Positions 22,061 to 58,027 of a stretch of 64,000 nucleotides of DNA are shown piece by piece (position 1 is the stretch's first letter; every line of letters starts with the position of its first letter). A model generated the notes under the pieces. It saw only the letters and a list, made by a program, of their open reading frames with translations. It did not search any database and was not told where the DNA came from. A program made the translations under genes and the position numbers. Origin of the DNA: an uncultured bacterium. Its GTDB lineage: Bacteria > Patescibacteriota > Doudnabacteria > UBA920. The stretch lies in assembly GCA_963749445.1 (NCBI GenBank), contig CAVVMJ010000004.1:93015-157014 (forward strand), given 5' to 3'.

Positions 22061-22066
22061 TCTTGA

Positions 22067-24820: not shown

Positions 24821-24843
24821 TTATTTTTGTCAATTTTGTTCAA

Positions 24844-25452: not shown

Positions 25453-25500
25453 GTTTTGATTATAGCAAAATAAACCCCAAAATGCTATAATTTTAAGGCT

Positions 25501-26064: not shown

Positions 26065-26213
26065 ATTGTCGTTAATCGGTGTACGGCGGCGCTGCGGGTA
26101 TCGGTAAGCGTCAAGCGGTTTACGGCCGCAAGCCGTGTGCCACCGGACGATACGCGCGGCGCTGACGATAAACGAATTACGATTCGGGTATTGGAATTTA
26201 TTTAGAATAATTT

Positions 26214-26930
26214 ATGAAACTTCCATTCGGAAAAAACAGAAAAGTTGGACTAATCAACCGCGGGCGATTAATCGTGCTGGACGGCATTGACGGCAGCGGC
26301 AAAAGCACGCAGCTAAAGATGCTTGATGATGAGCTAAAATTTATCGGCTACAAAACTGAGGTCATCCACTTTCCCCAGCACGGCAGTCGCTCTGCTGCCA
26401 TGGTTGACGATTATTTGGCCGGCAAGTTCGGTTCGGTGAATCCTTACGCCGCCTCGGCGTTTTACGCCGTGGACCGGTTTGAGGCCGGCCCGCGCATTGA
26501 AGCCTGGCTAAAAGAGGGCAAAGTGGTGCTGTCCGACCGTTACGTTACGGCCAATGCCGCGCACCAGGGCGGAAAAATCGTCGACCATTTTGAACGTTTA
26601 AAGTTTTTCAAGTGGCTGGATAATCTGGAATACACGGTGTTCGGCATCCCCAAACCCGACCTTAACATTATTTTAAATGTGCCTGCCGAGGCTGCCATCC
26701 AACTGCTAAAATTGCGCGCCGAAGACGCTCATCACGTAGACAAAATGCACGAACCTAACAAACAGCATCTGGTTAACAGCTATAACGCTTTTGTGGAAAT
26801 TTCGCGGCTGTTTCCCAACACTAAATTAATTGAATGCGTGCAGAATAACGAACTTCTGCCACCCGAGCAAATCCACAACAAAGTTTGGGATTTTGTCAGA
26901 AGAATAGCATTAAAGGATTTTAAGGCATAA
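26214..26930 (+). CDS. tmk: thymidylate kinase
   Basis: LIVLDGIDGSGKSTQ P-loop, DRY-like ..SDRYV.., lid region. Confidence 0.8.
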   Translation: MKLPFGKNRKVGLINRGRLIVLDGIDGSGKSTQLKMLDDELKFIGYKTEVIHFPQHGSRSAAMVDDYLAGKFGSVNPYAASAFYAVDRFEAGPRIEAWLKEGKVVLSDRYVTANAAHQGGKIVDHFERLKFFKWLDNLEYTVFGIPKPDLNIILNVPAEAAIQLLKLRAEDAHHVDKMHEPNKQHLVNSYNAFVEISRLFPNTKLIECVQNNELLPPEQIHNKVWDFVRRIALKDFKA

Positions 26931-29469: not shown

Positions 29470-30111
29470 ATGATCAAGTTTGAAAATGTCGGCAAGCATT
29501 ATGACGGCGTCAAGGCTTTGGATGGCATTGATTTGCGAATCCACCACGGCGAGTTTATTTCGCTGGTGGGCATGAGCGGCGCGGGAAAAACCACATTGCT
29601 GCGCCTGATTATCGGCGAAGAGCATTTGGATACTGGCAGGATTTTGATTGACGATATAGATATTACCAAAGTACCCAAGCGCGATTTGCCTTATTTGCGC
29701 CGAAAAATCGGCATGGTCTTCCAAGACATCAAGCTGTTGCCGCGCCGGACGGCTTTTGAAAACGTGGCTTTTGCTATGGAGGTCTGTGGGCACAAAAAGG
29801 AAAAAATCGCCCAAGACGTGCCGAAAATTTTGGATTTAGTCGGCCTTTTGCATAAAACCGACCATTTTCCTTACCAAATGTCCGGCGGGGAAAAACAGCG
29901 CACAGCCATTGCGCGCGCTTTAGCCCATAGGCCGGTGCTGCTTTTGGCTGACGAACCCACAGGCAATTTGGACGAGGTCAACTCCAACGAAGTTTTGGAT
30001 TTGTTGCTAAAGATTAACGAGCTGGGCACCACGGTTATTCTGGCCACCCACGCCTCGGATTTAGTCAACAGAATCAACAAGCGGGTGATTACCATGGAGG
30101 GGGGAGGATAA
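29470..30111 (+). CDS. ftsE: cell-division ABC ATPase FtsE
   Basis: MIKFENVGKHYDG..GMSGAGKTT..LSGGEKQR..LLLADEPTGNLD. Confidence 0.9.
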   Translation: MIKFENVGKHYDGVKALDGIDLRIHHGEFISLVGMSGAGKTTLLRLIIGEEHLDTGRILIDDIDITKVPKRDLPYLRRKIGMVFQDIKLLPRRTAFENVAFAMEVCGHKKEKIAQDVPKILDLVGLLHKTDHFPYQMSGGEKQRTAIARALAHRPVLLLADEPTGNLDEVNSNEVLDLLLKINELGTTVILATHASDLVNRINKRVITMEGGG

Positions 30112-30192
30112 TTAAGCAGCAGCAGACGGGTAAATACGAGTTATAACACAAGCGGCGCCAACGATTAACGAGTAACAAAATTTAAAATATCG

Positions 30193-30292
30193 GAAATTGC
30201 GAGCCCTAAGTGCACCCGAAGGGCGCGGCAATCCCTCTCTTTAATAGGATTGCTTCGTCGCCAGACAAAGCCCTGGCTCCTCGCAATTTCAC
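30193..30292. repeat. GAAATTGCGAG hairpin-repeat family copy (between ftsE and ftsX)
   Basis: ggaaattgcgagccctaagtgcacccgaagggcgcggcaatccc...ggattgcttcgtcgcc...ctcctcgcaatttcac. Confidence 0.7.
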
Positions 30293-30302
30293 TCCTTGAT
30301 TT

Positions 30303-31220
30303 ATGCTGGATTCCATCTCATTTTTGCGCGTCATAAAAACCGGCTTCACCAATTTTTGGCGCAACCTGTGGCTGTCGGCGGCCGCCACCATGGTTATGAC
30401 CGTAACCCTGGTGATTTTTGCCATTATGTTTTTGATGTTCGGCCTCACCAGCTACTCCATCAAGACCATCCAGAATACCGTGGACATCAGCGTTTACTTT
30501 AAAGTCGGTTTGGATGAAGGCCAGATTATGAAAATCAAAGGTGATTTGCAAAACGATTCGCGTATCAAAGACGTCGTTTACACTTCCCAGCAACAGGCGT
30601 TTGACCAGTTCAAGCAGCGCCACGCCGGCGATCCTTTAATTCAGGAGTCGCTCAACGAGCTCACGGAAAATCCTCTGCCCGCGACTTTGAACATCAAAAC
30701 TTATAATCTTTCCGACTATCCGGCCGTGTCGCAGGAATTGCAGGGTTCGGATTATAAAAATTTTATTGACAAAGTGAATTTTGAGGACAACCGTGCGGTC
30801 ATTGACCGTTTGGACAAAATTTTGCGCTTTATTACCACATTCGGCGTGGGACTGGTCGCGGTGTTTTCGCTGATCGCGATTTTGGTAATTTACAATACCA
30901 TCACCCTGACCATTTACAACCGCAAGGAAGAAGTGGAGATTATGCGGCTGGTGGGAGCGACTAACTGGTATATCCGCGGGCCGTTTTTGGTGGAAAGCTT
31001 GCTTTACGCCATCGGTTCCACCATTTTGACCGGCCTGGTATTTGCCCCGGTATTTAGCCAGGTTTTGCCGCGGATTGCCAATTACGTTAACCCGCAGCTC
31101 AACGTCCTGCATTCCAATTTTTTCAATTTTTGGTATTTGGAGCTTTTACTTTTGGTGATTTCCTTGTTGTTGGCCGTGATTTCCACCATGCTGGCAATCC
31201 GGAAGTATCTTAAAATATAG
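30303..31220 (+). CDS. ftsX: cell-division permease-like protein FtsX
   Basis: 4 TM helices, large periplasmic loop; follows ftsE. Confidence 0.85.
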   Translation: MLDSISFLRVIKTGFTNFWRNLWLSAAATMVMTVTLVIFAIMFLMFGLTSYSIKTIQNTVDISVYFKVGLDEGQIMKIKGDLQNDSRIKDVVYTSQQQAFDQFKQRHAGDPLIQESLNELTENPLPATLNIKTYNLSDYPAVSQELQGSDYKNFIDKVNFEDNRAVIDRLDKILRFITTFGVGLVAVFSLIAILVIYNTITLTIYNRKEEVEIMRLVGATNWYIRGPFLVESLLYAIGSTILTGLVFAPVFSQVLPRIANYVNPQLNVLHSNFFNFWYLELLLLVISLLLAVISTMLAIRKYLKI

Positions 31221-35179: not shown

Positions 35180-35425
35180 ATGGCAAGCCATCATCAGCTA
35201 AAAAAATTTTACGGCGCAACGACCCTGGGAGAAAAAGGCCAGGTGGTTATTCCCGTGGAAGCGCGCAAACTTATGAAACTCAAGGTGGGGGAGAAGCTGC
35301 TGGTTTTCGGCAAGGGCAATGATATGCTGGCTTTGGCTAAAGTTGGCCAAATCCACAAGTTTGCGGAAGAATTAAGCCAGCGGCTGGACAGCATTAAAAC
35401 GATTATCAAAAAGAGCGGGAAGTAA
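35180..35425 (+). CDS. AbrB/MazE-family (SpoVT/AbrB domain) small DNA-binding protein
   Basis: GQVVIPVEARKLMKLKVGEKLLVF. Confidence 0.55.
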   Translation: MASHHQLKKFYGATTLGEKGQVVIPVEARKLMKLKVGEKLLVFGKGNDMLALAKVGQIHKFAEELSQRLDSIKTIIKKSGK

Positions 35426-35434
35426 TTCAACCAG

Positions 35435-35533
35435 TTGATGGGCATCTTCTTGCCAACACAATCCTCGACCGTTGTTTGTCATTATTCGATGATTATCAGT
35501 TGGCGATTGTGGAACCACGAAGATGCCCATCAA
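35435..35533. mobile_element. MITE-like 99-bp element, copy 4 (opposite internal orientation)
   Basis: ttgatgggcatcttcttgccaacacaatcctcgacc...gtggaaccacgaagatgcccatcaa. Confidence 0.85.
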
Positions 35534-35669
35534 TCGAAAGTTAAAATTATGGACATTATCCAGGTAAAAAATCTTACCATCCGCCTTCGCTCCCGACTTC
35601 GCCAAGGCTTCGTCGGGTAAGAAAGCTTCGGCGGATCTCTGCCGGATTTTTAAAATTTTCCGATTTATT

Positions 35670-36485
35670 ATGACTATGAGCGATAACAATATTATTAAGG
35701 TTAGTAATCTTTCGAGGAAATTCGGGGATTTTAAGGCTGTGGATAACATTTCCTTTGAGGTCAAACAGGGTGAAATTTTCGCTTTTTTGGGGCCGAACGG
35801 AGCGGGAAAATCCACGACCATTAAAATGCTGACAACTTTGCTTAATCCGACTCGCGGCAGCATTGAGCTTAACGGTTTTAACCCCGTAAAAAACGCCAGC
35901 GCGGTGCGCAAGGCTTTTGGCATCGTCTTCCAGGACCCGAGCCTGGACGACGAGTTGACTGCCTGGGAGAACATGGAATTCCACGGCGTGCTTTACGGCG
36001 TGCCCAAAAAATTGCGCCGAGAAAGAATTGAACAACTGATGAATTTTGTGGAGCTGTGGGACCGCAAAGACAGTTTGGTCAAAGAATTTTCCGGCGGCAT
36101 GAAGCGCCGTTTGGAAATCGCCCGCGGGCTGCTCCACCATCCCAAAGTCTTGTTTTTGGACGAACCGACCATTGGGCTGGATCCGCAAACCCGGAACCAC
36201 ATGTGGAATTATTTGCTGGAGCTAAACAAATCCGAAGGCATAACGGTATTTTTTACCACCCACTATATGGAAGAGGCAAGCAAGATTGCCCAGCGGATTG
36301 CCATTATTGACCACGGCAAAATTGTGGCCACCGGCACCACGGAAGCCTTGCAGGCGCAAACCCAAACCGCTTCTTTGGAAGACGCGTTTTTAAAGCTGAC
36401 CGGCAATGTCATCCGCGACGAGGAAGCCAGCGCCACGGACCGCCTGCGCGCGCACCGGCAGTGGCGCGGCGGCGGCCGACGATAA
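35670..36485 (+). CDS. ABC transporter ATP-binding protein (ABC-2/DrrA-like)
   Basis: GPNGAGKSTT, LSGGMKRRL, LFLDEPTIGLDP. Confidence 0.9.
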   Translation: MTMSDNNIIKVSNLSRKFGDFKAVDNISFEVKQGEIFAFLGPNGAGKSTTIKMLTTLLNPTRGSIELNGFNPVKNASAVRKAFGIVFQDPSLDDELTAWENMEFHGVLYGVPKKLRRERIEQLMNFVELWDRKDSLVKEFSGGMKRRLEIARGLLHHPKVLFLDEPTIGLDPQTRNHMWNYLLELNKSEGITVFFTTHYMEEASKIAQRIAIIDHGKIVATGTTEALQAQTQTASLEDAFLKLTGNVIRDEEASATDRLRAHRQWRGGGRR

Positions 36486-39332: not shown

Positions 39333-39379
39333 CTTAACAAATTTGTGTTATACTAAATTAAATGGTTTGGTCTGCGGTC

Positions 39380-39478
39380 TTGATGGGCATCTTCATGGTT
39401 CCACAAACCTCAATCAATAACTATCCGGTAATGATAAATAACGGTCGAGGGTTGTATTGGCATGAAGATGCCCATCAA
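39380..39478. mobile_element. MITE-like 99-bp element, copy 5
   Basis: ttgatgggcatcttcatggttccacaaacc...ggcatgaagatgcccatcaa. Confidence 0.85.
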
Positions 39479-39499
39479 GCGAGACAGAGTTTAATCAGA

Positions 39500-39901
39500 A
39501 TGTTCACTTACGTCGAAATCAAAAGCTGGCTTTCAGAAAAAGAAAATAAGCAGAAAATCATTTATGGTATCTGCTTTATTTTAGTGTTTATTATCGGTTT
39601 CGGCACCGGAAAGCTTAATCAGGATAGTTACGGGTTAACATCACAAAAGCAAGTTAATTATAGCACAAAATCAACATCAAATCCAGCTCCGGCCGCCGCT
39701 AGCAAGGCGGGGGACAACGCCACTTTGGTTAAAGGCACCAGCACGCCGGCCAGCTGTGTGATTAAGGGCAATATCAACTCCAAAGGTTATAAAATTTACC
39801 ACGTTCCCGGCGGCCAGTATTATAAAATCGTCAAACCCGAGCAGTGTTTTAATACGGAAGCCGAGGCTCAGGCCGCGGGATTTGTGAAGTCTTCTCGGTA
39901 A
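39500..39901 (+). CDS. small membrane-anchored protein with conserved Cys-containing C-terminal motif
   Basis: start MFTYVEIKS after MITE; TM helix; C-term CVIKGNINSKGYKIYHVPGGQYYKIVKPEQCFNTEAEAQAAGF. Confidence 0.35.
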   Translation: MFTYVEIKSWLSEKENKQKIIYGICFILVFIIGFGTGKLNQDSYGLTSQKQVNYSTKSTSNPAPAAASKAGDNATLVKGTSTPASCVIKGNINSKGYKIYHVPGGQYYKIVKPEQCFNTEAEAQAAGFVKSSR

Positions 39902-41307: not shown

Positions 41308-41575
41308 ACGTACGGTTAATTAAAAATATTGTTTTTGACAACATCGGGGGAGTGTAGCCTTAATAAAAAACCGTCCTTATAATCAAGGGCGGATTTTTTA
41401 TGAAAAAATTTTTACCAAAGCAAAATATTTTTGATTCAATAATCAGTAATTGGGCTATTTATTGGGGTATTAGGGAAAGACCGATAAATTGACTCAAGGG
41501 GATAGCCAAACAAAAATATCTATCACGTCGCGCAATGTATCTTCTGCGACGAGCAATATAAGAAAGTCCTATAAA

Positions 41576-42655
41576 TTAACGGATCGGGCCAAATTGTTGA
41601 TAGCAGCCTAAGACTTTAGGCGCGTAATTTCTACTTTCATTATAACCGGTATTTGGCACATTATGCGCGGTATCGTCGTACAGGCATTCCCACGCTCTCA
41701 TTGGATTAGTGCCATCACAACTGGTGCCTGTACAGTCAACGCTTTGCGCGCAAGCTTTTGTTCCGCCATTATAACCGGCGGCGATATTTAAAACTCCGCT
41801 GCAGCTTGACGAAAGGGTTTGAAGATATTGGGCTCCGAGGCAAATAACCTGGCTGGCGTTGCTTGGATTGGTAAGCCAGCCGGAATCGACAGTTACGTTG
41901 ATGCCGCAGGCCGATTTATAACTGGAGTTGTTAGCTGTATCAACTTGTAGCTGCATTAATCCGTAAGAATTAGCCCCGGAGGCCGCACCGGGCTTACAAG
42001 ACGATTCATTGACCATAATTGCTTTAATTAAGGAGGCCGCATCTACTCCGCTGATGGAAACTTTTTGTGCGGCAGCGGTGATAGCATTGTTATATTGATC
42101 ACAAGCGGAATTTGTACATGAGAGACCTGACGGCGCTTGGCAGATAGCGGCGTTTACCGTAGCCGCCCCTCCTGCCGCCGGCGCTCCTGTAGTCGGGGTT
42201 GTCACTCCCGGCGTCACTACTACGCTGGGCGGTTGGATGGATTGGAAGCGCAAGAGGTCGGGATTTAAAGCCCTAAGCAGGACATAGCCGCCAAACAGAA
42301 TGACCATGGCCGTTATGGAGCTGATAAACATGCTTTTAGCGTTGTCTATGGTTTCCTGGTTGCCATCTGATGCCATGTATCGGTACCCGGCGATGACAAT
42401 GAACAAAATCGCCACCACGCTGCCCGCGGCAATGGCGAAACGGTAAAGTTTGTTAATGCAGGTAAATAAATCCGTGCCGACCGTATTGGTGGGCGCGCAA
42501 AGATATTGCTCAATCTGGCTGGAAACGCCGGAATACACAGGCGGGTTGGTCACCGAAGGCGAATTTTGCGCGTAAGCCAAATTGATGTGTGCCAACAAAA
42601 GCTGTGTCGCAATCAGGATAATAAAGAAAGTTTTAATCTTTTGGCGTTTATTCAT
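41576..42655 (-). CDS. secreted fusion protein: N-terminal TrbC/VirB2-like pilin-type double-TM domain + C-terminal lytic transglycosylase (SLT) domain
   Basis: signal peptide, two adjacent hydrophobic helices (AIAAGSVVAILFIVIAGY / ITAMVILFGGYVLL), Thr/Pro-rich linker, SLT motifs ..IMVNESSCKPG..SYGLMQLQ.. Confidence 0.5.
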   Translation of the reverse strand: MNKRQKIKTFFIILIATQLLLAHINLAYAQNSPSVTNPPVYSGVSSQIEQYLCAPTNTVGTDLFTCINKLYRFAIAAGSVVAILFIVIAGYRYMASDGNQETIDNAKSMFISSITAMVILFGGYVLLRALNPDLLRFQSIQPPSVVVTPGVTTPTTGAPAAGGAATVNAAICQAPSGLSCTNSACDQYNNAITAAAQKVSISGVDAASLIKAIMVNESSCKPGAASGANSYGLMQLQVDTANNSSYKSACGINVTVDSGWLTNPSNASQVICLGAQYLQTLSSSCSGVLNIAAGYNGGTKACAQSVDCTGTSCDGTNPMRAWECLYDDTAHNVPNTGYNESRNYAPKVLGCYQQFGPIR

Positions 42656-42785: not shown

Positions 42786-44195
42786 TTATTGCGCTGGCAA
42801 AAAATCCAATGGGTTATAAGTATAGCCGTAAGGGATTTTATACGGGCCGTAAATTTTGGTGTAAGCTCCGGATTTAACCCCGAAACCATCAACATCGTAA
42901 ACCCCGAAGTGCGCGTGGTATCCCCTCTCCGGACCGTAAAGTTTGGCGGTGGTGTTGCCGGTGTTGCCCTCGTAACCAATAAGATCGCCTTGTTTGACGG
43001 ACTGACCCGGAGAGACTATAAAGCTGCGAAAGTGCGCGTAAAGGGTAATAATGTTAACTTGGCCGTTTGGGCCGCTGAGCGAATGTTTGATGGCGACCCA
43101 GTTGCCGAATTCCGTATCCGAGCGGTCTGTGTCATAAACCACACCGTCGGCCGCGGCGTAAACCGGCGAACCGGCCGGCCCGGCAACATCTATGCCGTTG
43201 TGAAAAGTATAGCCTAAAGCGGTAAAACCGGTGTTGCCGTACCCTTGGGTCAAAATGCCGTCAACCGGCCACTCCAGAAGCCCGGCTCCGGCCGGCGTGG
43301 CTTTGTTGCCGAGCTTGGCGCGGATTTGGTTGTCCAAATCGTTGACTTCTTTTTGCAAGTCAGCCGCGCTTTGCTTGCTGGAGACAAGAAGTTTTTGATA
43401 GTTACTTTCCAGCCCGCGGGTCTGGTTGAGCAGCTGCTGTTTTTGGTCGCGCTGTTCGGACAGCGAATCTTGGGTAATTTGCAGCTCGTTTTGTAATTCC
43501 TGCAGGGTTTTTAGTTGTGCCTTTAAGCTGTCTTGCGTGGACTGAAGCTGGGCCTTTAAGTCTTTGATTTTTTGCACCAGCTGGTAAATTTTGTCCTGGT
43601 AGTCCTTGGTGTACTGGATTTGGTCCAAAAAATCGGAAAGGTTGTCGCTGCCGATTGTGGTTTTCAGCCCGTATTCGGTGTCGTATTCGTTTAGCTCTAC
43701 GATGAGCGCGGACAGGATTTGCCGGTTTTGGGCGATTTCGTTATTTTTTTCTTCTATGGCCTGCTCTAGCTGCTGGATTTGCAAATTGACGTCGTCTTCT
43801 TGGGTTTGCTTGGCTTCTATTTCCAGCTGGGTGGAAGCGATTTGTTTGTCAAAAACCAGAATGGCGTTTCTGAGCGTGTCGGCGGATTTTTGCGTCGTTG
43901 CGATTTGCTGCTGGTACTGCTTAATTTGCCGGTTTATCTGGTCCAGCTTGATTTGGTTGGCGGATTTTTGGGCGTTTAAATCGTCAACGCTGGTGTCCGC
44001 TCTGACAACAGAAAAACTTAAAACCAGCGCCAAAATAAGGATGAAGGCGAATTTTGGTTTTACCCGCCTAAATTTGAAAGAGTTGATGGGAAAAATGCCG
44101 TGGCCGTTTTTGTTTGGTGCAAGGGCGTTTTTTCCATCACGGGAGATTTTTTCAAATTTTGGCGGGTTAATGTTGGTTTCTTTTCCATAAAGCAT
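42786..44195 (-). CDS. M23 (LytM) peptidase with long N-terminal coiled coil (EnvC-like)
   Basis: N-terminal TM, ~280 aa Q/L-rich coiled coil, C-terminal HNGIDV...LYAH (HxxxD / HxH M23 motifs). Confidence 0.8.
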   Translation of the reverse strand: MLYGKETNINPPKFEKISRDGKNALAPNKNGHGIFPINSFKFRRVKPKFAFILILALVLSFSVVRADTSVDDLNAQKSANQIKLDQINRQIKQYQQQIATTQKSADTLRNAILVFDKQIASTQLEIEAKQTQEDDVNLQIQQLEQAIEEKNNEIAQNRQILSALIVELNEYDTEYGLKTTIGSDNLSDFLDQIQYTKDYQDKIYQLVQKIKDLKAQLQSTQDSLKAQLKTLQELQNELQITQDSLSEQRDQKQQLLNQTRGLESNYQKLLVSSKQSAADLQKEVNDLDNQIRAKLGNKATPAGAGLLEWPVDGILTQGYGNTGFTALGYTFHNGIDVAGPAGSPVYAAADGVVYDTDRSDTEFGNWVAIKHSLSGPNGQVNIITLYAHFRSFIVSPGQSVKQGDLIGYEGNTGNTTAKLYGPERGYHAHFGVYDVDGFGVKSGAYTKIYGPYKIPYGYTYNPLDFLPAQ

Positions 44196-44251
44196 CGGTT
44201 AAATTATACTACAATTTTGGGGTTTTGGCAATTTTGGGCTTAATTGTATCA

Positions 44252-45929: not shown

Positions 45930-47378
45930 TTAAGCCAAATCTTTCAAATCATCCATGACTATTTTTGTCAGGCTGGCTCTTTCGGAATGGATAGCTTTGT
46001 CCAGTTGGTCGACCGGAACCCATCGAAAACCCATAAACTCGTGATGATCAACATAAACTTTGTCATCCGCGCCTAAAAATTTAAAATAGGCAATATTTTG
46101 AACCTGCCCGATGTTTTTATGCCTGCGGTTGTGCCAAAATTTACGCGCGGCGTTATTCCAAATGTAAGTGTTGGTATGCGGGGAGATTTTGATAAATTCT
46201 AAATTTTTTATTCCGGTTTCTTCCAGGGCTTCTCTTTTTGCCGCTTGTATTAGATTTTCTGTGCCGTCTATTCCTCCTTGCGGCAACTGCCAGTAATTTG
46301 CTCTCTTTAAATTTTCTTTTGTCGTCATAACATCGACGTGGAAATTTTTGGGGTCGCGCTGGCAAACCAGGACTTCATTTTTTTTATTAAGAATGGCTAT
46401 CGCGATGTTCGGCCTTAAGGGCAGGTTCGCAAAAACTTTATAGTGCCACAGGGCGGATGCCAGGCCGAAAGTCGCGTTAATAATTCTGGGCAGGCGCTTG
46501 GGCTGGGTGAACAGGCGCCAGAGCCATTCCAGGCCCGTTCGGCGCAAAAAACGCGGCGGCTGGGGCTGTTTGCCGGCGATGTAGTCAAATGTTCCGCCCA
46601 GGCCGACAACCAGTTTTATGGGCAAATCCGGCAAGTTTTTGGCAATCCACTTTTCCTGCCTGATTGGACCGAAGGCCACAAACAAGAGGTCAGGCGCCGC
46701 CTTTTTTATGTCCTCGATAATGGTCGGGTTATCAGGGTTTTTGTTTGACCACCCGGCCACCTTGAGTTTACTAGCTGATTTGCTTATTAGCTTATCAGCT
46801 GCTAATTTTGGTGTGTCGCCGAATCCGCCTAAAAGGTAAACTGATAAATTATTATCAACAGCCAGTTTTGCCAAATCCCAAACCAAATCTGCGCCGGGGA
46901 TTTTTTCTTTCATACCACCTCCCCCGCCTGCGGCGGGTACTCCTCCTATGATAGGAGGAGAGCTCCGCGTGTCATCCGAGGATAGCTGCGGAGCGTCCCC
47001 TCCTAAAGTAGGAGGGGTGGCCGCGTTAGCGGACGGGGTGGTATTGTAAATAAATTTTGGATAAAAAACTATCGCCGCCAAACTGTATTTAATTTGCCAC
47101 GCTGCCTGCAGAATTTTTCCCCAGTAGGATTTGGCGGTAAGAGGAATTGATAAATATCGGGCGGCCCAAAACAAACCAATGCCGTCGGGCACGGCAATGT
47201 CAGCGGAATTTAAAATTTGCATCACTTCCGGGTCCAGCAACGCGGCGCGTAAAAACTCGGAGTACGGCGTGATTAGCCAGGTTTTTTGCCCGTTTTTTAT
47301 CTGCTGGCGTAAGCGTTCAAGCAATTCGGCTTTCGTCAGCGCGTCAATTTTCAATCCCGCGATGTCGATTTTGTCCAT
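45930..47378 (-). CDS. WecB/TagA/CpsF-family glycosyltransferase fused to C-terminal NUDIX hydrolase, with in-frame repeat insertion (start MDKIDIAGL; ORF track extends to 47750)
   Basis: TagA-like LITPYSEFLRAALLDPEVMQILNSADIAVPDGIGLFWAAR; Nudix box GGIDGTENLIQAAKREALEETGI; residues ATPPTLGGDAPQLSSDDTRSSPPIIGGVPAAGGGGG encoded by repeat 46915..47042. Confidence 0.6.
   Translation of the reverse strand: MDKIDIAGLKIDALTKAELLERLRQQIKNGQKTWLITPYSEFLRAALLDPEVMQILNSADIAVPDGIGLFWAARYLSIPLTAKSYWGKILQAAWQIKYSLAAIVFYPKFIYNTTPSANAATPPTLGGDAPQLSSDDTRSSPPIIGGVPAAGGGGGMKEKIPGADLVWDLAKLAVDNNLSVYLLGGFGDTPKLAADKLISKSASKLKVAGWSNKNPDNPTIIEDIKKAAPDLLFVAFGPIRQEKWIAKNLPDLPIKLVVGLGGTFDYIAGKQPQPPRFLRRTGLEWLWRLFTQPKRLPRIINATFGLASALWHYKVFANLPLRPNIAIAILNKKNEVLVCQRDPKNFHVDVMTTKENLKRANYWQLPQGGIDGTENLIQAAKREALEETGIKNLEFIKISPHTNTYIWNNAARKFWHNRRHKNIGQVQNIAYFKFLGADDKVYVDHHEFMGFRWVPVDQLDKAIHSERASLTKIVMDDLKDLA
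46915..47042 (-). repeat. RPE-like modular palindromic element, in-frame copy inside tagA-NUDIX gene
   Basis: reverse complement reads ccaccccgtccgctaacgcggccacccctcctactttaggaggggacgctccgc...cgcggagctctcctcctatcataggaggagtac...gcgggggaggtgg; same translation frame as copies in rseP/prfB. Confidence 0.8.
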
Positions 47379-47431
47379 AATTGAATTATATCCTATTTTA
47401 GCCTGATTTGATAGCATTTTTTTGATCTTTC

Positions 47432-47725
47432 GTGTATAATCCCAATATGGAATCCATAGGAAAAATCGCCAAATTTCCATCAGCAAAACCAAAAAAAGAC
47501 GTCCATCTCCACTCACCGGCCCACCTTTTGGCCGATGAATTATGCCACAAGCTGAATGACAAAAAACATTTTGGTTTTTATTTAAAGATGGCGACTTTGT
47601 ACGATCACAATTGGCTGCGCGGTTTGGCCGGGCAGGTGCTGGAAGGCAAAAATGTGGCCACGCCCGGAAGGTTGTTTGCGTATTTGATAAAGAAGCATAA
47701 CCAAGAGTCAAGAAGCAAGAATTAA
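47432..47725 (+). CDS. hypothetical small protein
   Basis: ORF only. Confidence 0.25.
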   Translation: MYNPNMESIGKIAKFPSAKPKKDVHLHSPAHLLADELCHKLNDKKHFGFYLKMATLYDHNWLRGLAGQVLEGKNVATPGRLFAYLIKKHNQESRSKN

Positions 47726-47730
47726 GAGTC

Positions 47731-48207
47731 ATGATATTACCTATTCTCACTTATCCCAATGAAGTTTTAAGGAAGCCGACCGAGCCGGTGAGCTTTCCTT
47801 TGTCTAAAGATATTATCAAGCTGACCCAGGACATGATAGACACGGTGCGCAAGGCTGAAGGCATCGGCTTGGCCGCGCCGCAGGTCGGCCGGAGCGTCAA
47901 AGTGATTATCATTAACCTGGAAAAAAACGGCGTGCCGATTTTTCCGCTTTACAACGCGCGCGTAATGTCAAAGGGTTTTAAAAAGGTGGAAGTTGAGGAA
48001 GGCTGTCTGTCCATTCCCGGAGTTTACGGTATGGTCAAGCGGCCAAAAAAAGTCAAAATCCAGGCGCAAAATATGGAAGGCAAAAAAATTACTTTTACCG
48101 ACGACGGCTGGATTTCCCGAGTCTGCCAGCATGAAATTGACCACATCGACGGCATACTCATCATCAATTTGATAAAAAAATACACCCAGGGCGAGGAAAA
48201 AGTTTAG
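47731..48207 (+). CDS. def: peptide deformylase
   Basis: GIGLAAPQVG, EGCLSIPG, QHEIDHIDG. Confidence 0.9.
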   Translation: MILPILTYPNEVLRKPTEPVSFPLSKDIIKLTQDMIDTVRKAEGIGLAAPQVGRSVKVIIINLEKNGVPIFPLYNARVMSKGFKKVEVEEGCLSIPGVYGMVKRPKKVKIQAQNMEGKKITFTDDGWISRVCQHEIDHIDGILIINLIKKYTQGEEKV

Positions 48208-50824: not shown

Positions 50825-51616
50825 TTATTTAAGGTATTTCTGTTTGTTTATCAAGTGCTCGTCGTAAGTCCCGGCAAACACAGCCTGGCCGGTTTTGGGG
50901 TCGGTCAAAAAGTAAAAGTAATTGCTGGCGGTCGGATACAGGGCAGCCATAATGGAAGACAGTGAAGGGTCGCAAATCGGCCCGGGCGGCAGGCCAAGAT
51001 TGTTGTAGGTGTTGTAATCCGGCAGGCTTTGTTGTTGGCTAAAGGCTACGGTAGCGTCGCTCTGTAGAGGCATTTTGGCGTTGAGTCGGTTATAAAAAAC
51101 CCCCGAGATCATCGCGCGGTCTTCGGTTTTGCCTGACTCTTTTTCTATGATTGAGGCCAGCGTAACAATTTGGTAGGCCGTCATTTTTTGCTTGGCCGCC
51201 TGCTGTTGCATATCAGCCGTAAACTTTACGCTAAAGTTATCCACCATTTTTTTAATGATTTCACTGGCCTGAAGGCTTTCATCGGTCTGGTAAACTGCCA
51301 CGCGGTAAGTGTCCGGAAACAAGAAGCCTTCCAAACCGGCGGTTTTTGGCTTGGACGACAGGATTGGGTAAGCGGAGACATCAAACTTTCCAGCAGCGTT
51401 TAAAAAATCGCTTCTTTTTAACAGGCCCTTTTGTTCCAGGTAATCGGCGATTTGCGCGTTAGTCCAGCCCTCGATAATCGTTATTTGCGTTTCCGGCGCT
51501 TTGGCTTCTTGCCGCTGTTGCCTGAGGTTTTGCCTGTATCGGAAAAGGCCGTAGCCAATGAGGCTACCGCCAACAATCAGAAATATAAAAACGGTAATGG
51601 CGATTTTTTTAATCAT
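50825..51616 (-). CDS. mltG: endolytic murein transglycosylase MltG/YceG
   Basis: N-terminal TM; YceG-like core (..GLEGFLFPDTY.., ..LASIIEKES..). Confidence 0.85.
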   Translation of the reverse strand: MIKKIAITVFIFLIVGGSLIGYGLFRYRQNLRQQRQEAKAPETQITIIEGWTNAQIADYLEQKGLLKRSDFLNAAGKFDVSAYPILSSKPKTAGLEGFLFPDTYRVAVYQTDESLQASEIIKKMVDNFSVKFTADMQQQAAKQKMTAYQIVTLASIIEKESGKTEDRAMISGVFYNRLNAKMPLQSDATVAFSQQQSLPDYNTYNNLGLPPGPICDPSLSSIMAALYPTASNYFYFLTDPKTGQAVFAGTYDEHLINKQKYLK

Positions 51617-52181: not shown

Positions 52182-53835
52182 TTAAGGTTTGGCGGCGGGA
52201 ATATTTTGGTTTTGCGCCAAATCCAGCAAAGTGGTTTTGGTGAGGTTGGTATGGATGGGGACGGTAAAGATGAATTTTGAGCCTCTTCCCTCCCCCGTGC
52301 TTTCAGCCCAGATTTTGCCTTTGTGCTGCCCAATTACTATTTTGGCCACGTAAAGGCCGAGTCCCAGTCCGGCGCTTTGGTTAATTGACCCCTTGCCGCG
52401 GGTGTATTTTTCAAAAATCAGCCCCTGTTCTTCGCGCGCAATGCCCTTGCCGGTGTCGGCAACTTCAAAACGCAAATCATTGCCGTCTTGCCGCAGCTGA
52501 ATGCGGATAGTGCCTTTTTTGGTGTATTTAATCGCGTTATCAATTAAATTATTCATAACCTGCCGCAGTTTTTCCTTGTCCGCCATAATTTTGGGTAAAT
52601 GGTTTACGGGCGGCTGGTAAACAAGTTCCAGATGTTTTTCCTGGGCAATCGGCTGGAGCTGTTCCAAAGTAATATTTGCCAGTTCGGCCACGTCGGTTTC
52701 CTCAAACAAAAATTCCATTTTGCCGCGCTCAATGCGCGAAACGTTAAGCATATCGTCAATTAAGGAAATCAGCGAATTGTTGGTGCGGAAAGTTTTTTCT
52801 ATAATCTCCTTGGTTTTCCGCCTCCAGCTTGCCGTAATCTCCGGCCAAAATCGCGGCCAAATACCACTTAACCGTGGCCGGCGGGGTGCGCAGCTGATGC
52901 GAGGCGATGGAAATAAACTCCGCCCGCGCCTGGTCCAGGATTTTAAGCTGCTCGTTGGCGGCTTCCAATTGTTTGGTCAAAATTTGCAATTGCTCTCTTT
53001 GTCTTACCTCAATAAGTACGCTTTTGATCAAGAATATGCTGAATATTAAAATGAGAAGGCCGATAATGCTTTGCAGTATCAAATTTGTGAGGTCTTTTGC
53101 CAAAAGTATTTGCCACAAGCTGGTGAATAATAGGAAGAAAGAAGCGATTTCCGTAGCAATAACTTTTATATTTAACAATTTATGCCTCAGAATCGCATAT
53201 GAAGTCGCGATAATGGTGGGCATAACGTAGAATGGCGAATAGATGGTGAGGGATGAGTTATTAAATAGTACTATAGCCAGATAGAGGAAGGATAAGATAA
53301 AGGTGTACGTTAGAGTCAGGCCGATTGAAATCGATCTCCACTGTTTTTTTTCCAGTCCAACGGAAGCTATGTATTTTTTGATCATCAGGTAAAAAGTCAA
53401 CAGGGAAGCGCTAAGAATGGAGAAGCCGTAGTAAGGCATCAGTATTCCCGTTTGCGGCAACGGAATATTATTAACAACGCCCACCGTTTTAAAAATAAAA
53501 GGCGTCAACGGCAGGATTGTTAGTGAACCGCCCCAGACCAAAAGCAGTAAGAGATCTCTTTTTTTGACAATAAATTCCTGTTTTGGAAAATTATAGACAA
53601 AGAGAAAAAATGAAAAAATAGTCGGTATGGCAAAAACCATTACCAAGCGGATCCATTGCAAAGATTCCATTGGATTTATTGTCAGGGCCAAATAATTGCA
53701 AATGAGCCAGCCGCAGTTGGACAGCGAGTGAATCAAAAATAAAACATTGGTTTTACTGCTGGTATCGTGCAAGTAAACCAAAAAACCTAAATAGACAATA
53801 ATGAATGCCGACAGGCAGGTTAAAAAAAGATTCAT
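52182..53835 (-). CDS. sensor histidine kinase (7TM sensor + HisKA + HATPase), apparent frameshift near 52780-52790 splitting ORFs 52756..53835 and 52182..52751
   Basis: H-box SIASHQLRTP; after shift ..NNSLISLIDDMLNVSRIERGKMEF.. X-box; N/G1/G2 boxes (NLIDNAIKYT, DTGKGI, GLGLGL). Confidence 0.75.
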
Positions 53836-53836
53836 T

Positions 53837-54982
53837 CTATTTTTTCCGTTTAATTTGGCGAAGCGGTTGGCGTGTTGTTTTTTTGACTAGCCAAGTTTTT
53901 GTAGCGGCTTGTGTTAGGACAGTTGGCTCCAGACTGTATCGGCCGCTTGGGATTTTTGTTCCCAAAAGTATATGCCTGGTTAAATAGGCCAAAACCGCAC
54001 CGCTTAGGCTGGCTGCAGACCCCAATTGTGGCCAAGCGAATAGCGTTTTGCCGATTTCACGCAATGACTCCTGCACGCGCGGAGGCATATTTTCCTGCCC
54101 GATGATCCTTGTGACCAGTTTGATGACTTCTTGCGGTTTATAATGTGTGAATTCTTCCATGGTAAAATCTCCGAGCAGCCCATTAAAAATTTTTAAGTTT
54201 TGATCTAAGTCATAGCGTTCAATATCCACTATCCCCCATTCCCCAACATCGGTGGCCATAAGAAGTGCGGTTTTAGATTGTCTGGCTTTGAGACGCAGCC
54301 GGATTTTCATCTCCAGGCTGTCTACTTGGTCAATTAGAAGGTCAGATGCCGGAATTTTGTCGGCTTTGTCGCCATCGACAAACTCATCCAGGTTACTGTG
54401 GGTTAGTCCTTCCGGGTAAATAAAAATATTGGTGTACGGATCAATCTCGGCAATTTTTCTGGCAAAATAAAGTGCTTTATTAGTTCCGATGGAGGAAAAA
54501 CCCGCGGGTAAACGGTTAAGGTTAGAGCCAGATATTTCGTCGAAATCGGCCAATTTGATATTTTTTGCTCCGCCAGTCAGCGCAATAGAAAGGGCGGCGT
54601 GGCTGCCGACGCTCAATCCGGCAATGGCCACGGTGCTATTATAAAATTTTTGCTGCTCTGCGCTCAGGATCATATTTTTGTTGCGTGCGGTGCGGATTTC
54701 CTGATGCAAATCCGGTTCCAGATAATGGACAAGAGTTTGCTTCCAGTCAAAGTAAAACCAGACGCCGCACTCTCCCAGTTTTTTACCTTTTTTGTGATTG
54801 TCTATAAATTTCGCTAAGCTTGTCTCATGCCCTTTTTTAAACCGGTATTTGGGGTTTCTGATAAAAAATAATTCTTCCAGCAAATTTTGGTAATAATCAT
54901 GAATAAGACGAACCGGGTATTTCCTTCGGAAGTCCCGTAATTTTTTTTTAGTCGGGTCAAATGTAATTAATTTAAATTTCAT
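53837..54982 (-). CDS. ThiF/MoeB/E1-like adenylyltransferase-family protein with N- and C-terminal extensions (start MKFKLITFD, ATGA-coupled to upstream gene)
   Basis: Rossmann VAIAGLSVGSHAALSIALTGGAKNIKLADFDEISGSNLNRL. Confidence 0.7.
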   Translation of the reverse strand: MKFKLITFDPTKKKLRDFRRKYPVRLIHDYYQNLLEELFFIRNPKYRFKKGHETSLAKFIDNHKKGKKLGECGVWFYFDWKQTLVHYLEPDLHQEIRTARNKNMILSAEQQKFYNSTVAIAGLSVGSHAALSIALTGGAKNIKLADFDEISGSNLNRLPAGFSSIGTNKALYFARKIAEIDPYTNIFIYPEGLTHSNLDEFVDGDKADKIPASDLLIDQVDSLEMKIRLRLKARQSKTALLMATDVGEWGIVDIERYDLDQNLKIFNGLLGDFTMEEFTHYKPQEVIKLVTRIIGQENMPPRVQESLREIGKTLFAWPQLGSAASLSGAVLAYLTRHILLGTKIPSGRYSLEPTVLTQAATKTWLVKKTTRQPLRQIKRKK

Positions 54983-54984
54983 GG

Positions 54985-56496
54985 TCAGATTTTGGCTGGC
55001 GTTGCCTGTTTTTGCAACCATTTTTGTTTGCTCCCGCTTTTAAAATATTTTTCGTGATTGTAGTCCCAAAAAATTAAGCGCGGCCTGGTTCGTTGGATTA
55101 AAAGATGCTTGGTCAGTTCTCTATATTCAGAATTGTTCTCTAAGAGGTTATTTACTATGGCATGCTCTGTGGATTCTTGTAGTTTTAAAGTGCTACCATG
55201 GCTGGGTTTTAATTCTAAATTAATTTCAAATTGTTGGTTTTGTTTGCGGTCGTAGACCACCGCCATGCTGAATTTGCCGGTGAGGTATTTTAAGAGCTTT
55301 TTATTTTCTAAGGCTTGCTTGATGGTTTGGGGGTAAATTTGGAGGCCATAAAAGCTTACCGAGAAATCATTTCGTTCGTATAAGGAAACGAGAGGGAGGC
55401 TTTCCAGTTTAATATGTTTTGCCTCTGCTTCTTTTGCCAGATTTATGCCGAAAGCCGCAAATATTTTTTTAACCCGTTCTAAATCCATCACGTTGCCTGT
55501 ATCCCCTATCTGATAGCGGATCAGCGGCGTGGCGCTGTCTGCGGTCAGAAACAATTCCCCGTTCTCCTCCTCAAAAGCAGCAAACAGCGGGTTAAATTGA
55601 CCTAAAGTGGGAACCTTGGCTCCATGCTTGAAGATTTTTTGAAAAATATTGGGGTATTTAAGTGCCAAACGTTTAATGAGCATGCATGTCGGGGTTTCCC
55701 AAGCGATTACGCCGGCTTCGCTGCATCCGTACATATTTCCAGTATCACGATAAGGATCTCTCATGCCAATTTCGGCGGCGAGGTAGTCGCGGAAGTTTTC
55801 GGTAAATGTTTCCCCGCCAAACAGCAAGCGCAGGTGCATTTTTTTAAGATTAATGTTTTGCTGTTTTGCCTCGTCGATAACGTCTTTAATAAACGGTGGG
55901 TAGCCGACTAAAATTACGGAATCGTATAAAGGGGCGAGTTTTGTGAAGCTTTTAAAAATTTCAATTTTGTTTATGCCCGTAGGGATGATACTAACAATAC
56001 AACCGCGCTCTCCCGCCAGAGTGACAGCATCATATGTAAGAACACCGGCTAGCCATAAGCCTAACCCGTAGGCGTCTATAAACAAGGTTTTGGTGTTGGG
56101 TTTACCCAGCTTTAAAAAATACTCAATCCACGTGGAATACTGCCGGGCTAGATTATTGCTGCGGTAAAAATATACTGGCATTCCGGTGGAACCTGAGGTC
56201 GCGCATAACGACAGTCCTTTAGTTTTAAAAATGTTCGGCCATGTCATCTCGTGAAGGGGAAAGATGCGAAAATAGTTATTTTTATTCATCGCCGGCAATC
56301 CTTTAAAATCTTGGTATGATTTTATTTTTTTTGGATTGATTTTGTGCTGCTTGAGAAATTTTCGGTAGGCTGGCACGTTTTGGGCGGCATGCTGGAAAAG
56401 CTTTAGGCTGATACTTTGTTGCTGTTTTTGCCAGAAATTGCAGCTTTTGATGCCGTAAAACTTAAATAATTGTTTAGTATTCAATTTTGGGTTCAT
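54985..56496 (-). CDS. PaaK/LuxE/F390-synthetase-like adenylate-forming enzyme
   Basis: ATSGSTGMPVYF (P-loop-like AMP-binding motif of PaaK family), ..YGCSEAG.. Confidence 0.6.
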   Translation of the reverse strand: MNPKLNTKQLFKFYGIKSCNFWQKQQQSISLKLFQHAAQNVPAYRKFLKQHKINPKKIKSYQDFKGLPAMNKNNYFRIFPLHEMTWPNIFKTKGLSLCATSGSTGMPVYFYRSNNLARQYSTWIEYFLKLGKPNTKTLFIDAYGLGLWLAGVLTYDAVTLAGERGCIVSIIPTGINKIEIFKSFTKLAPLYDSVILVGYPPFIKDVIDEAKQQNINLKKMHLRLLFGGETFTENFRDYLAAEIGMRDPYRDTGNMYGCSEAGVIAWETPTCMLIKRLALKYPNIFQKIFKHGAKVPTLGQFNPLFAAFEEENGELFLTADSATPLIRYQIGDTGNVMDLERVKKIFAAFGINLAKEAEAKHIKLESLPLVSLYERNDFSVSFYGLQIYPQTIKQALENKKLLKYLTGKFSMAVVYDRKQNQQFEINLELKPSHGSTLKLQESTEHAIVNNLLENNSEYRELTKHLLIQRTRPRLIFWDYNHEKYFKSGSKQKWLQKQATPAKI

Positions 56497-56507
56497 AGAG
56501 GCGACGG

Positions 56508-57524
56508 CTAGTTAAAAATTATTTGTGTCAAGGGTAAGCGCGGCGCAAACGGCGGGATTTTTTCGCAATATCCTAAACGGAAAAAAAGTTGAGGCCTCTC
56601 ATTGATATTCAGCAGTTGTTGCAGCCTGCGGAAATGGTTGCCAATTTCAATTGGCGCTGCCAGCAACGCGAGTCGCAAATTTTGGATTTCCGTTTCCACC
56701 GCCATTTTTTCAAAAATATCCCCGCACCGGAGCCACGCGGCGGCGTTGTCTTCAGGCGTGCTTAAAACCATAAAAGCTTGTGAGGCATAAAGCATGTCGC
56801 CGGCCATTTTGGACTGGCTGCCGCCCAAAGGTAGATGTTTAATAGCCCAAGGCATAAAAAAAGAAAACACCCAAGGAATGCCGATATTGTAGCCTGGCAT
56901 GCCGTCCGTGTATTTTTTCAAGCTGGGTTTGATCCAACGCGACAATTCATCAATGAACGCTTTATCCTTAAAGGCATCTGTTGTGGCTTGTTCCGCGATT
57001 GTTTGCGCGATCTGTTTTTGTTTCGCGTCGACGATGGCATCGGCACGGACATCTTGTCCAGCAATATCGATAATTTTTTGTAGGGTTTGTTCGGCGATGG
57101 GGCGATTGTCATATTTGAACCGGTTGCAGCGGCGGGTTAAAATAGCTTTAAGCCGGATTGCGTCATAACGGGAAGGCGTTAGATTGGTAAAGGAGACTAC
57201 GGCGATGGGGATATCACTGGAAGCAGGCTGAGGTTTTAAGTTGTATTGGTAATTTAAGCCCAGGGCATCCGAAGCTATTATCACGTTGGCTAGTGCGGCT
57301 CCGAGACTGATATAAAACTCCCGCCCTGTCGGATCGGAAGCGGCTAGTTTTCTGGTCCAGTTCGCCCAAAGTTCAATAGTTTGGCCGGCGCACTTAAAAA
57401 GCCAAGGTTGAGTGTTATGGCTGGAAGGCGCGAGTGTCGCTAAAAATGTCAAATAACGAAGCTTTTCTATATCTGGCAGTCCAGCAAAGTGCTCTAATGC
57501 TATATAGTTTGTTCGCGTATACAT
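56508..57524 (-). CDS. nitroreductase-family protein (tandem nitroreductase fold; SagB/Acg-like)
   Basis: LAPSSHNTQPW motif, 338 aa consistent with double nitroreductase domain. Confidence 0.55.
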   Translation of the reverse strand: MYTRTNYIALEHFAGLPDIEKLRYLTFLATLAPSSHNTQPWLFKCAGQTIELWANWTRKLAASDPTGREFYISLGAALANVIIASDALGLNYQYNLKPQPASSDIPIAVVSFTNLTPSRYDAIRLKAILTRRCNRFKYDNRPIAEQTLQKIIDIAGQDVRADAIVDAKQKQIAQTIAEQATTDAFKDKAFIDELSRWIKPSLKKYTDGMPGYNIGIPWVFSFFMPWAIKHLPLGGSQSKMAGDMLYASQAFMVLSTPEDNAAAWLRCGDIFEKMAVETEIQNLRLALLAAPIEIGNHFRRLQQLLNINERPQLFFRLGYCEKIPPFAPRLPLTQIIFN

Positions 57525-58021: not shown

Positions 58022-58027
58022 CGGTTG

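Follow-up and report, generated by a model that had tools for sequence, protein, structure and literature searches.

Why should a bacterium carry, in one polypeptide, the membrane hairpin of a secretion-system pilin and the catalytic domain of a lytic transglycosylase? The question is raised by an open reading frame (ORF) in a 64-kb stretch of contig CAVVMJ010000004.1 from an uncultured member of the Doudnabacteria (the whole stretch is referred to here as the window). The ORF encodes a protein of 359 amino acids (aa) that is 100% identical to protein P0001 of public collections, found on a 198,939-bp contig. An earlier interpretation made from the letters alone (the sequence-only reading) had described an unusual fusion of a VirB2/TrbC-like pilin domain with an SLT domain and had suggested that it might belong to an apparatus resembling a type IV secretion system (T4SS). 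We find that the pilin-like hairpin and the lytic transglycosylase are genuinely fused in one chain, and that the hairpin looks like a general carrier for wall-opening enzymes and not like part of a secretion-system locus. What that first interpretation missed is the context: the gene follows an M23 peptidase gene at a conserved housekeeping locus whose heads are exchangeable among species. The reading that we favour, tentatively and with a little less than even confidence, is that the protein is a family-1 lytic transglycosylase tethered to the membrane, and that it and the M23 peptidase open peptidoglycan together.

The features of the protein and its surroundings are collected in Table 1. 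The chain runs from a Sec-type signal peptide through a two-helix hairpin and a disordered linker to an SLT head with 12 cysteines. Kyte-Doolittle analysis identified three hydrophobic segments, centred on residues 15-20 (the hydrophobic or h-region of the signal peptide), 78-87 (the first transmembrane helix, TM1) and 117-121 (TM2). The signal peptide has the n-region KRQKIK and a predicted cleavage site between AYA and Q, and the alanine before this site (A29) is invariant among the 12 closest homologues and nearly invariant among 120; cleavage and the topology of the chain in the membrane remain predictions. Residues 135-171 have the composition T6 P5 G4 A7 V5 in 37 residues, and residues 135-163 had a predicted local distance difference test score (pLDDT) below 50 in an AlphaFold2 model of the full-length protein (44 homologues as input; mean pLDDT 81.8). 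The description of a secreted protein with a signal peptide, two close hydrophobic helices, a Thr/Pro/Gly-rich linker and a Cys-rich SLT domain was therefore borne out. Because both Pfam matches, described below, exceed their curated thresholds, the pairing of the two domains is not a chance resemblance.

The C-terminus is, judged from its sequence, a catalytically plausible family-1 SLT domain. PF01464 scored 50.9 bits (cut-off 21.3; E = 1.4e-13) over residues 207-305, and NCBIfam gave weak MltC and EmtA matches for the protein. The head carries the motifs N-E217-S-S-C-K-P, Y-G-L-M-Q-L-Q (G232-L-M-Q) and A-A-G-Y-N-G-G (A293-G-Y-N-G-G). The predicted catalytic residue is E217 in the first of these; all 12 of the closest homologues have it, as do at least 90% of 44. 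Residues 170-359 were modelled at pLDDT above 90. A Foldseek search with the head against the PDB returned Slt (5ohu), MltC (4c5f) and MltE (4hjy) at E values of 2-4e-4 and a probability of 1.0, and a phmmer search of the same database returned MltE at 4e-5, with the NES motif of the head aligned with the IES motif of the Escherichia coli enzyme. Of the 14 cysteines in the protein, 12 lie in the head, and nine of these are conserved in at least 90% of the 44 homologues. An extracytoplasmic location is supported by the 12 head cysteines together with an invariant cysteine pair ahead of TM1; MdbA-like disulfide oxidoreductases enriched in the Candidate Phyla Radiation have been reported (PMC6744442).

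On the evidence of its Pfam match, the N-terminal double-helix module belongs to the VirB2-like pilins of the Patescibacteria (PF18895, T4SS_pilin). This model matched residues 63-121 of the full protein at 34.5 bits (cut-off 26.6; E = 2.2e-8) and the module scanned alone at 37.2 bits, and it matched 15 of 15 module sequences. The TrbC/VirB2 model PF04956, which was matched below threshold in eight of those 15, was likewise sub-threshold on the 359-aa protein (16.1 bits against 27.9; E = 0.013), as was the NCBIfam model of the Mbov_0395 pilin-like conjugal protein (E = 5.6e-4). Thus both domains named in the sequence-only reading were recovered above cut-off, the pilin domain through PF18895 and not through TrbC; with two helices and membership of a pilin family, the N-terminus does not look like a single anchor with no pilin-like fold. 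In the full-length model the hairpin consists of helices 61-94 (TM1) and 100-130 (TM2), at pLDDT 84-89; a model of the module alone (pLDDT 70.9) has helices at 32-65 and 71-105. A Foldseek search with the latter model found nothing in the PDB at E ≤ 0.001; the top match was the conjugation pilin of Aeropyrum pernix (8dfu; TM-scores 0.51/0.64, root-mean-square deviation 3.1 Å), at a non-significant E of 2.4. A profile of 15 N-terminal modules searched against all PDB sequences found no pilin and gave chance-level matches only (a Na/Ca exchanger at E = 0.12). Because of these two results we regard the fold as compatible with a VirB2-type pilin but not diagnostic of one: structure prediction gave a confident SLT-like head and a helical hairpin, and the likeness of that hairpin to conjugative pilins was not significant.

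Could the likeness to pilins then be spurious, a generic two-helix anchor whose composition happens to fit PF18895, so that the protein is an ordinary anchored SLT enzyme? Helical hairpins are generic, and the structural searches just described, together with the sub-threshold TrbC score of the query, are what such an explanation would predict. We nevertheless consider it very improbable. The query exceeds the PF18895 cut-off, and in a census of 136 relatives of the module (described below) 129 matched PF18895 at E ≤ 0.01, the best at 2.9e-71, while TrbC, an independent model, was matched by 24 (best E = 1.5e-13); Mbov_0395 is a third model pointing the same way. Moreover, conservation extends to motifs that are not hydrophobic, namely the Cys53/Cys66 pair before TM1, the loop motif SDGNQETIDNAK (GNQE..KAK) and an NPDL motif, and the best-conserved part of the module is the short inter-helix loop (G98, E101, A106, K107). 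Finally, the query hairpin aligns with short pilins from a second clade, with which it has the loop motif G(Y/I)RYM...(N/K)AK in common, and for this reason we believe that the module is a true relative of the array pilins and no look-alike.

The gene directly upstream of the pilin-SLT gene encodes a coiled-coil M23 peptidase, whose true start is probably 25-40 codons downstream of position 44195. The predicted protein consists of a signal or anchor segment, a Q/L-rich coiled coil of about 230 aa and a Peptidase_M23 domain with HNGID and HAH motifs; NCBIfam gave M23 and SMC-like coiled-coil matches (coiled coil at residues 67-291). It aligns near full length, through both coiled coil and M23 domain, with PDB chain 8tzk_E (residues 37-359), which we take to be EnvC in a Vibrio FtsEX-EnvC complex. 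The architecture is that of EnvC – an export signal, a long coiled coil and a C-terminal M23/LytM domain, in a genome that encodes FtsEX. The FtsE (ATP-binding cassette ATPase) and FtsX genes lie at 29470-31220, 11 kb from the pilin-SLT locus, in a gene order that is conserved in relatives. Because the M23 domain keeps the HxxxD and HxH metal ligands, the protein is probably an active enzyme and not a degenerate activator; the HxH is kept in six M23 orthologues. By consensus matching, the sole strong promoter-like site found on the minus strand of the window lies just upstream of the M23 gene, and neither a promoter-like nor a terminator-like site was found in the 130-bp gap between the M23 and pilin-SLT genes. 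Downstream, between the convergent pilin-SLT and Aminotran_5 genes, is a terminator-like hairpin whose stem, read on the minus strand, has a C-A mismatch.

We then asked how constant this arrangement is. Among 120 homologues of the protein, 31 had both domains, 76 matched the N-terminal module only (about 145 aa; 35-65% identity, mostly 40-57%) and 13 matched the SLT head only, so that the fusion is less unusual than had been supposed. A scan of one genome per species with a profile of the 12 closest sequences identified 40 loci, in records labelled Doudnabacteria, Patescibacteria or "uncultured Saccharibacteria", and we compared gene order across these and further loci fetched through the encoding contigs, using our own hidden Markov models (HMMs) for annotation. 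The conserved order is WecG/NUDIX, GluRS, coiled-coil M23, pilin-module gene or genes, NifS-like, ArfC and methyltransferase. In all 38 of the 38 loci that have upstream DNA, the gene right after the M23 gene carries the pilin module, mostly at a distance of -24 to +30 bp (130 bp in the window).

The head, by contrast with the module, is not constant: an SLT head is present in only 10 of the 40 loci. The others have heads that fall into HxxGxxxD...HxH clusters (M15-like, with sub-threshold M15, VanY and Hedgehog matches), a glucosaminidase-like cluster, an SLT_3-like cluster and a Peptidase_C39_2 cluster. The glucosaminidase-like head is so called from sub-threshold matches only (Pfam 2.2e-4; MltC 0.016). 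For "LAS-a", the largest cluster of non-SLT heads, a profile search found no matches in the PDB, and the M15-like assignment of this cluster is based on the HxxGxxxD...HxH motifs, on sub-threshold Pfam matches in five independent clusters and on significant M15, M15_4 and VanY matches in other relatives. On a neighbour-joining tree of GluRS the head types are interspersed. As examples, we point to the window (SLT), which is sister to locus L041 (SLT_3-like), and to L012 (SLT), which is sister to L040 (an M15-like cluster). From this scatter we conclude that the orthologous locus has exchanged its head more than once, with the module and the M23 gene left in place. Where module genes occur in tandem, they pair a glycan-cutting head with a peptide-cutting head in 11 of 11 loci, and in three proteins a peptidase-type middle domain and SLT occur in a single chain. 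Two heads in series, either two M15-like heads or an M15-like head and SLT, were seen in L014 (8496-10001), L005 (9980-11728), L013 (4375-5949) and L047 (7641-9131), a one-chain counterpart of the glycan and peptide pairing in tandem genes.

The mechanism that we tentatively propose is as follows. The Sec signal peptide would be cleaved and the VirB2-type hairpin would insert N-out, loop-in and C-out, with the linker of about 35 residues holding the disulfide-rich SLT head just outside the membrane. The head would cleave bonds between N-acetylmuramic acid and N-acetylglucosamine (MurNAc-GlcNAc) using Glu217, and the EnvC-like M23 endopeptidase encoded upstream, with which the gene may form a two-gene unit, would cut peptide cross-links; together, SLT and M23 would open the sacculus locally. 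The part of the hairpin would be that of a conserved carrier, anchor or docking module; in sister species it bears other wall-hydrolase heads at the same locus. The most plausible target would be the producer's own wall, for septum splitting or daughter release (possibly controlled by FtsEX) or as an opening for surface structures. We favour this reading because of the invariant adjacency of the M23 gene, the housekeeping neighbourhood with FtsEX, the short linker and the complementary glycan- and peptide-cutting heads.

The module extends far beyond this locus. A phmmer search with the module alone against 1.84 billion representative proteins (clusters at 50% identity) gave 7,706 matches at E ≤ 1e-3 and 376 at E ≤ 1e-10, and the best 150 relatives are nearly all 280-900 aa long with the module N-terminal. 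For the Pfam census we took 136 of the module relatives, excluding 14 sequences with known heads (the query and 13 homologues, 11 of which have SLT heads). The heads recognised were SLT (10), SLT_3 (7), Peptidase_M15 (5; 5.8e-29), Peptidase_M23 (5), M15_4 (4; 1.5e-20), C39_2 (4), Amidase_2 (2; 1.9e-19), VanY (2), Glucosaminidase (2), CHAP (1) and GDSL lipase (2). The Pfam-recognisable heads are thus essentially all cell-wall hydrolases, although in many members no head domain could be recognised; significant matches to M15 support the assignment of the motif-bearing head clusters described above. Four relatives (P0139, P0172, P0173 and P0208) contain 5-8 tandem hairpin copies in one chain of 555-820 aa, "poly-pilins" to which the top PF18895 score of the census (E = 2.9e-71) is probably due.

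In a second clade the fusion has a different setting. Distant pilin-SLT fusions (P0039, P0078, P0090 and P0100) were found on four contigs, whose sole taxon label is Paceibacterota, and there the fusion stands first in a compact operon with 3-4 further PF18895 genes. The gene order is SBP_bac_1, the pilin-SLT fusion, a gene for a protein of about 230 aa, one for a long PF18895 protein and three for short (105-190 aa) PF18895/TrbC-like proteins. GyrA and LeuRS flank the operon, and no VirB4 gene was found up to 10 kb away. The stops and starts in this operon overlap; the protein of about 230 aa has a C-terminal transmembrane segment and a Pro-rich tail, and the long PF18895 protein has a Cys-rich tail.

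Several points weigh against our favoured reading, an M23-partnered enzyme acting on the producer's own wall. In the second clade a pilin-SLT fusion does sit in pilin operons, and the module appears truly related to the pilins of T4SS-linked arrays. The conserved inter-helix loop suggests a specific partner and not a passive anchor; because the loop is net acidic, the proposed topology is not confirmed by the positive-inside rule. Repeated head replacement and tandem duplication in close species are what one would sooner expect of genes for host interaction or conflict than of core autolysins. The gap of 130 bp exceeds that of most relatives, and co-transcription with the M23 gene is therefore not certain; any physical or regulatory tie to FtsEX or to the M23 protein is hypothetical. 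Rapid head turnover, the conserved loop and the second-clade pilin arrays thus weaken a purely housekeeping role in particular.

The pilin relationship brings us to the T4SS-like apparatus of the sequence-only reading. In this explanation the protein would be a T4SS-associated wall opener, a VirB1 surrogate on a VirB2 scaffold that clears peptidoglycan for the apparatus, with the pilin module targeting the enzyme to the assembly site or joining the base, tip or length of the pilus. A survey of Patescibacteria T4SS by means of PF18895 found VirB2-like pilins in 1,948 assemblies, in arrays of 2-11 genes; most VirB2-positive genomes lack VirB1, for which other glycosidases may substitute (PMC12102498), and the explanation would account for why no VirB1 is recognisable in them. 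Gram-positive T4SS hydrolases typically combine a glycosidase and a peptidase, as in TraG of pIP501 (PMC12102498), a combination mirrored by the tandem pairs described above, and at least one genome of GTDB class Doudnabacteria is VirB4-positive (PMC12102498, Table S1). The module's PF18895 match and the TrbC/VirB2 score reached by its relatives (E = 1.5e-13), the loop motif G(Y/I)RYM...AK common to the module and the short array pilins, the non-significant top fold match to a conjugative pilin (8dfu; E = 2.4) and the four second-clade contigs in which the fusion opens a pilin operon all point in the same direction. The neighbourhood points elsewhere. No VirB4, VirD4, VirB6, VirB3, short pilin or type IV pilus gene was found among about 50 ORFs scanned across the window, and about 45 homologue loci, examined for 10 kb around the gene, likewise had no T4SS, short-pilin or type IV pilus genes; an HMM of the N-terminal module, searched over all frames of the window, found no second copy. 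The constant neighbour is instead the EnvC-like M23 peptidase in a translation and division block, and a 190-residue head on every subunit would be hard to fit with tight pilus packing. At 359 aa the protein is also far from the size of a stand-alone subunit (about 100-150 aa), and neither that size nor a T4SS or array context was found for it in this clade. The suggested apparatus therefore has no direct support in this clade; the second-clade arrays and the VirB4-positive genome keep the idea alive, and we rate it as unlikely but well worth keeping in view.

A related but bolder idea is that the VirB2-like pilin modules of Patescibacteria are a display scaffold: fused subunits would assemble together, or mix with short pilins, to build a pilus or an oligomer close to the membrane, on which interchangeable hydrolases are borne. 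We offer this as a speculation in which we have low confidence. If true, the scaffold would be a "lytic pilus" or drill for opening the wall of the producer, of the host or of both. The absence of VirB1 and part of the essential, hyper-variable pilin arrays would then be explained, and many of the "pilins" counted in Patescibacteria genomes would be enzyme carriers.

The exchange of heads bears on yet another explanation, in which the tethered hydrolase and its M23 partner are a host-directed weapon that breaches host peptidoglycan at the point of epibiont contact, for attachment or feeding, and in which head swapping tracks the wall chemistry of different hosts. Damage to host envelopes by Patescibacteria lytic transglycosylases and other hydrolases has been proposed (PMC11665869, PMC8080830). 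The rapid replacement and duplication of heads in close species at an otherwise static locus would fit this explanation, as would a disulfide-stabilised extracellular head on a flexible linker and the presence in the window of a housekeeping transglycosylase, MltG/YceG. We estimate, however, that a linker of about 35 residues is too short to pass the producer's own wall. The position of the locus, in the core genome beside division and translation genes in every species examined, speaks for a housekeeping role, there is no immunity-like gene and no toxin-like context, and an epibiont lifestyle would have to be assumed for the lineage. We judge such a weapon to be unlikely, though credible.

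Comparison with known systems helps to place the protein. Like the Patescibacteria VirB2-like pilins of PF18895 (PMC12102498, PMC10633639), it has a signal peptide, a two-helix hairpin and a short conserved loop; unlike them, it has a linker and head, and, unlike array pilins, it is present in single copy in 64 kb, with no array and no virB4 nearby, and is always paired with M23. With VirB1-type transglycosylases and Gram-positive T4SS hydrolases it has in common a GH23/SLT (glycoside hydrolase family 23) domain and a partner peptidase activity, whereas here, compared with VirB1-type enzymes or TraG of pIP501, a pilin-type hairpin provides the anchor, peptidase activity comes from a separate coiled-coil M23 protein and the locus is without T4SS genes. 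The best sequence and fold matches are with MltE/EmtA, MltC and Slt70 of E. coli, and the NES, GLMQ and YNGG motifs are present. These three enzymes, which come from a diderm, are lipoproteins of the outer membrane or soluble in the periplasm, whereas the protein described here has a two-helix tether to the cytoplasmic membrane and 12 head cysteines, in a lineage described as monoderm (PMC12857230).

Its upstream partner resembles FtsEX-controlled EnvC in its coiled coil and M23 architecture and in having FtsE/FtsX genes 11 kb away, but, as described above, its M23 domain keeps the metal ligands. PcsB, CwlO and RipC are further FtsEX-controlled coiled-coil hydrolases, and we know of no EnvC, PcsB, CwlO or RipC system that is paired with a pilin-anchored second hydrolase. 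MltG/YceG, which has a single transmembrane anchor, is likewise a glycan-strand cutter tethered to the cytoplasmic membrane, but its family is not related to that of the pilin-SLT protein. The window has its own gene for a YceG/MltG-type lytic transglycosylase, at 50825-51616 (minus strand; E = 2e-62), which places at least two membrane-associated transglycosylases within 10 kb of each other in the genome; because this gene is present, the pilin-SLT protein is an additional enzyme and not a replacement.

The domain pair is visible in database annotation, but in the searchable literature (PF18895, T4SS_pilin and fusions) we found no description of a pilin-hydrolase fusion; the sole fusion discussed in the survey of Patescibacteria T4SS is VirB3-VirB4 (PMC12102498). 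We believe that the finding is worthy of attention for several reasons. A large branch of the pilin family, at least 376 clusters (50% identity) at E ≤ 1e-10, is systematically fused to wall hydrolases, and within the Doudnabacteria-type lineage these fusions keep to one conserved place, next to the gene for an EnvC-like peptidase. Pilin numbers are overestimated if PF18895 matches are taken as pilus subunits, and the "missing VirB1" may hide within VirB2-like proteins. This matters because T4SS genes and VirB2-like arrays are essential in the sole species of Patescibacteria tested genetically, Southlakia epibionticum (PMC10633639, PMC12857230), and their role has been called "completely unknown" (PMC11665869). 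Their pili would be the first to be proposed for a monoderm T4SS (PMC12857230). The proteins are also concrete, cloneable candidates for the opening of peptidoglycan by ultrasmall bacteria, whether of their own wall or of a host's, and the exchange of heads that pair glycan- and peptide-cutting activities is a natural experiment in the shuffling of wall-hydrolase domains.

Table 1. Coordinates of the pilin-SLT gene, its parts and associated features (positions in the window; for the second-clade operons, positions in the loci named)
Feature	Coordinates	Strand	Basis or remark
Pilin-module/lytic transglycosylase fusion ORF	41576..42655	-	359 aa and stop, ATG start
Signal peptide, aa 1-29, MNKRQKIKTFFIILIATQLLLAHINLAYA then Q	42569..42655	-	Hydropathy peak aa 15-20; cleavage predicted
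VirB2-like pilin module, aa 30-140	42236..42568	-	PF18895, AlphaFold2 helices, alignment with second-clade short pilins
PF18895-matched stretch, aa 63-121	42293..42469	-	Pfam
Flexible T/P/G/A-rich linker, about aa 135-170	42146..42253	-	pLDDT and composition
Cys-rich family-1 lytic transglycosylase head, aa 171-359	41579..42145	-	PF01464, pLDDT, Foldseek, phmmer
Predicted catalytic Glu217 codon (N-E-S motif)	42005..42007	-	Codon read; conservation; MltE alignment
Coiled-coil M23 peptidase gene, directly upstream partner	42786..44195	-	PF01551, E = 1.6e-22
Promoter-like site TTGCCA-17-TATAAT (11/12), just upstream of the M23 gene	44203..44231	-	Consensus match only
Terminator-like hairpin flanked on either side by T-runs, where the pilin-SLT and Aminotran_5 genes converge	41371..41392	.	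Consensus match only
Second-clade operon, locus L006 (Paceibacterota label)	8700-14842		
Second-clade operon, locus L048	8700-14315		
Second-clade operon, locus L049	8686-14564		

The scanned ORFs of the window are housekeeping or regulatory. They include genes for translation and RNA functions (RRF, ProRS, NusG, L11, L1, RF2, GluRS, Def, two RNase T, Fmt and QueA), for shape, wall and division (MreB/C/D, PBP2, FtsE/FtsX and YceG/MltG) and for nucleotides and cofactors (FolD, a nucleotide-salvage block and CTP synthase), as well as RseP, an ABC-2 exporter, a methyltransferase, a NifS-like enzyme, WecG-NUDIX, two-component proteins and MgsA. A prophage or holin-endolysin origin of the pilin-SLT gene was considered and ruled out, since the locus is syntenic core genome in 40 species and without phage genes.

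We also note several features of the neighbouring genes. At 45930-47750 (minus strand) a WecG/TagA glycosyltransferase is fused to a NUDIX hydrolase, a fusion kept in all related loci; because the 606-aa ORF is about 120-180 aa longer than its orthologues (424-486 aa), its upstream GTG start is probably wrong. The nucleotide-salvage and dTMP block at 20216-26930 encodes dCTP deaminase, DHFR, a nucleoside deoxyribosyltransferase-like protein, ThyA, a CYTH protein, an HD-domain 5'-nucleotidase-like protein, a dNMP kinase-like protein and thymidylate kinase. The cluster at 52182-57524 (minus strand) is a gene set unusual for a reduced genome: an Acg-family flavin mononucleotide (FMN) oxidoreductase (Rv3131-like, E = 2e-65), a PaaK-like adenylating ligase with no Pfam match and an Rv1355c-like ThiF-family protein (E = 1e-90), adjoining a histidine kinase that is seemingly split into a seven-transmembrane part and a HATPase_c part. 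Finally, downstream of the pilin-SLT locus, at 39362-39901 (plus strand), is a gene for a 179-aa protein that carries the precomputed label PF27542 "ArfC" and had no match in our Pfam scan. Nearly all relatives have this gene in the syntenic position, and two other ORFs of the window, at 35375-35992 and 57881-58129 (both on the minus strand), give weak paralogous matches to short stretches of the protein.

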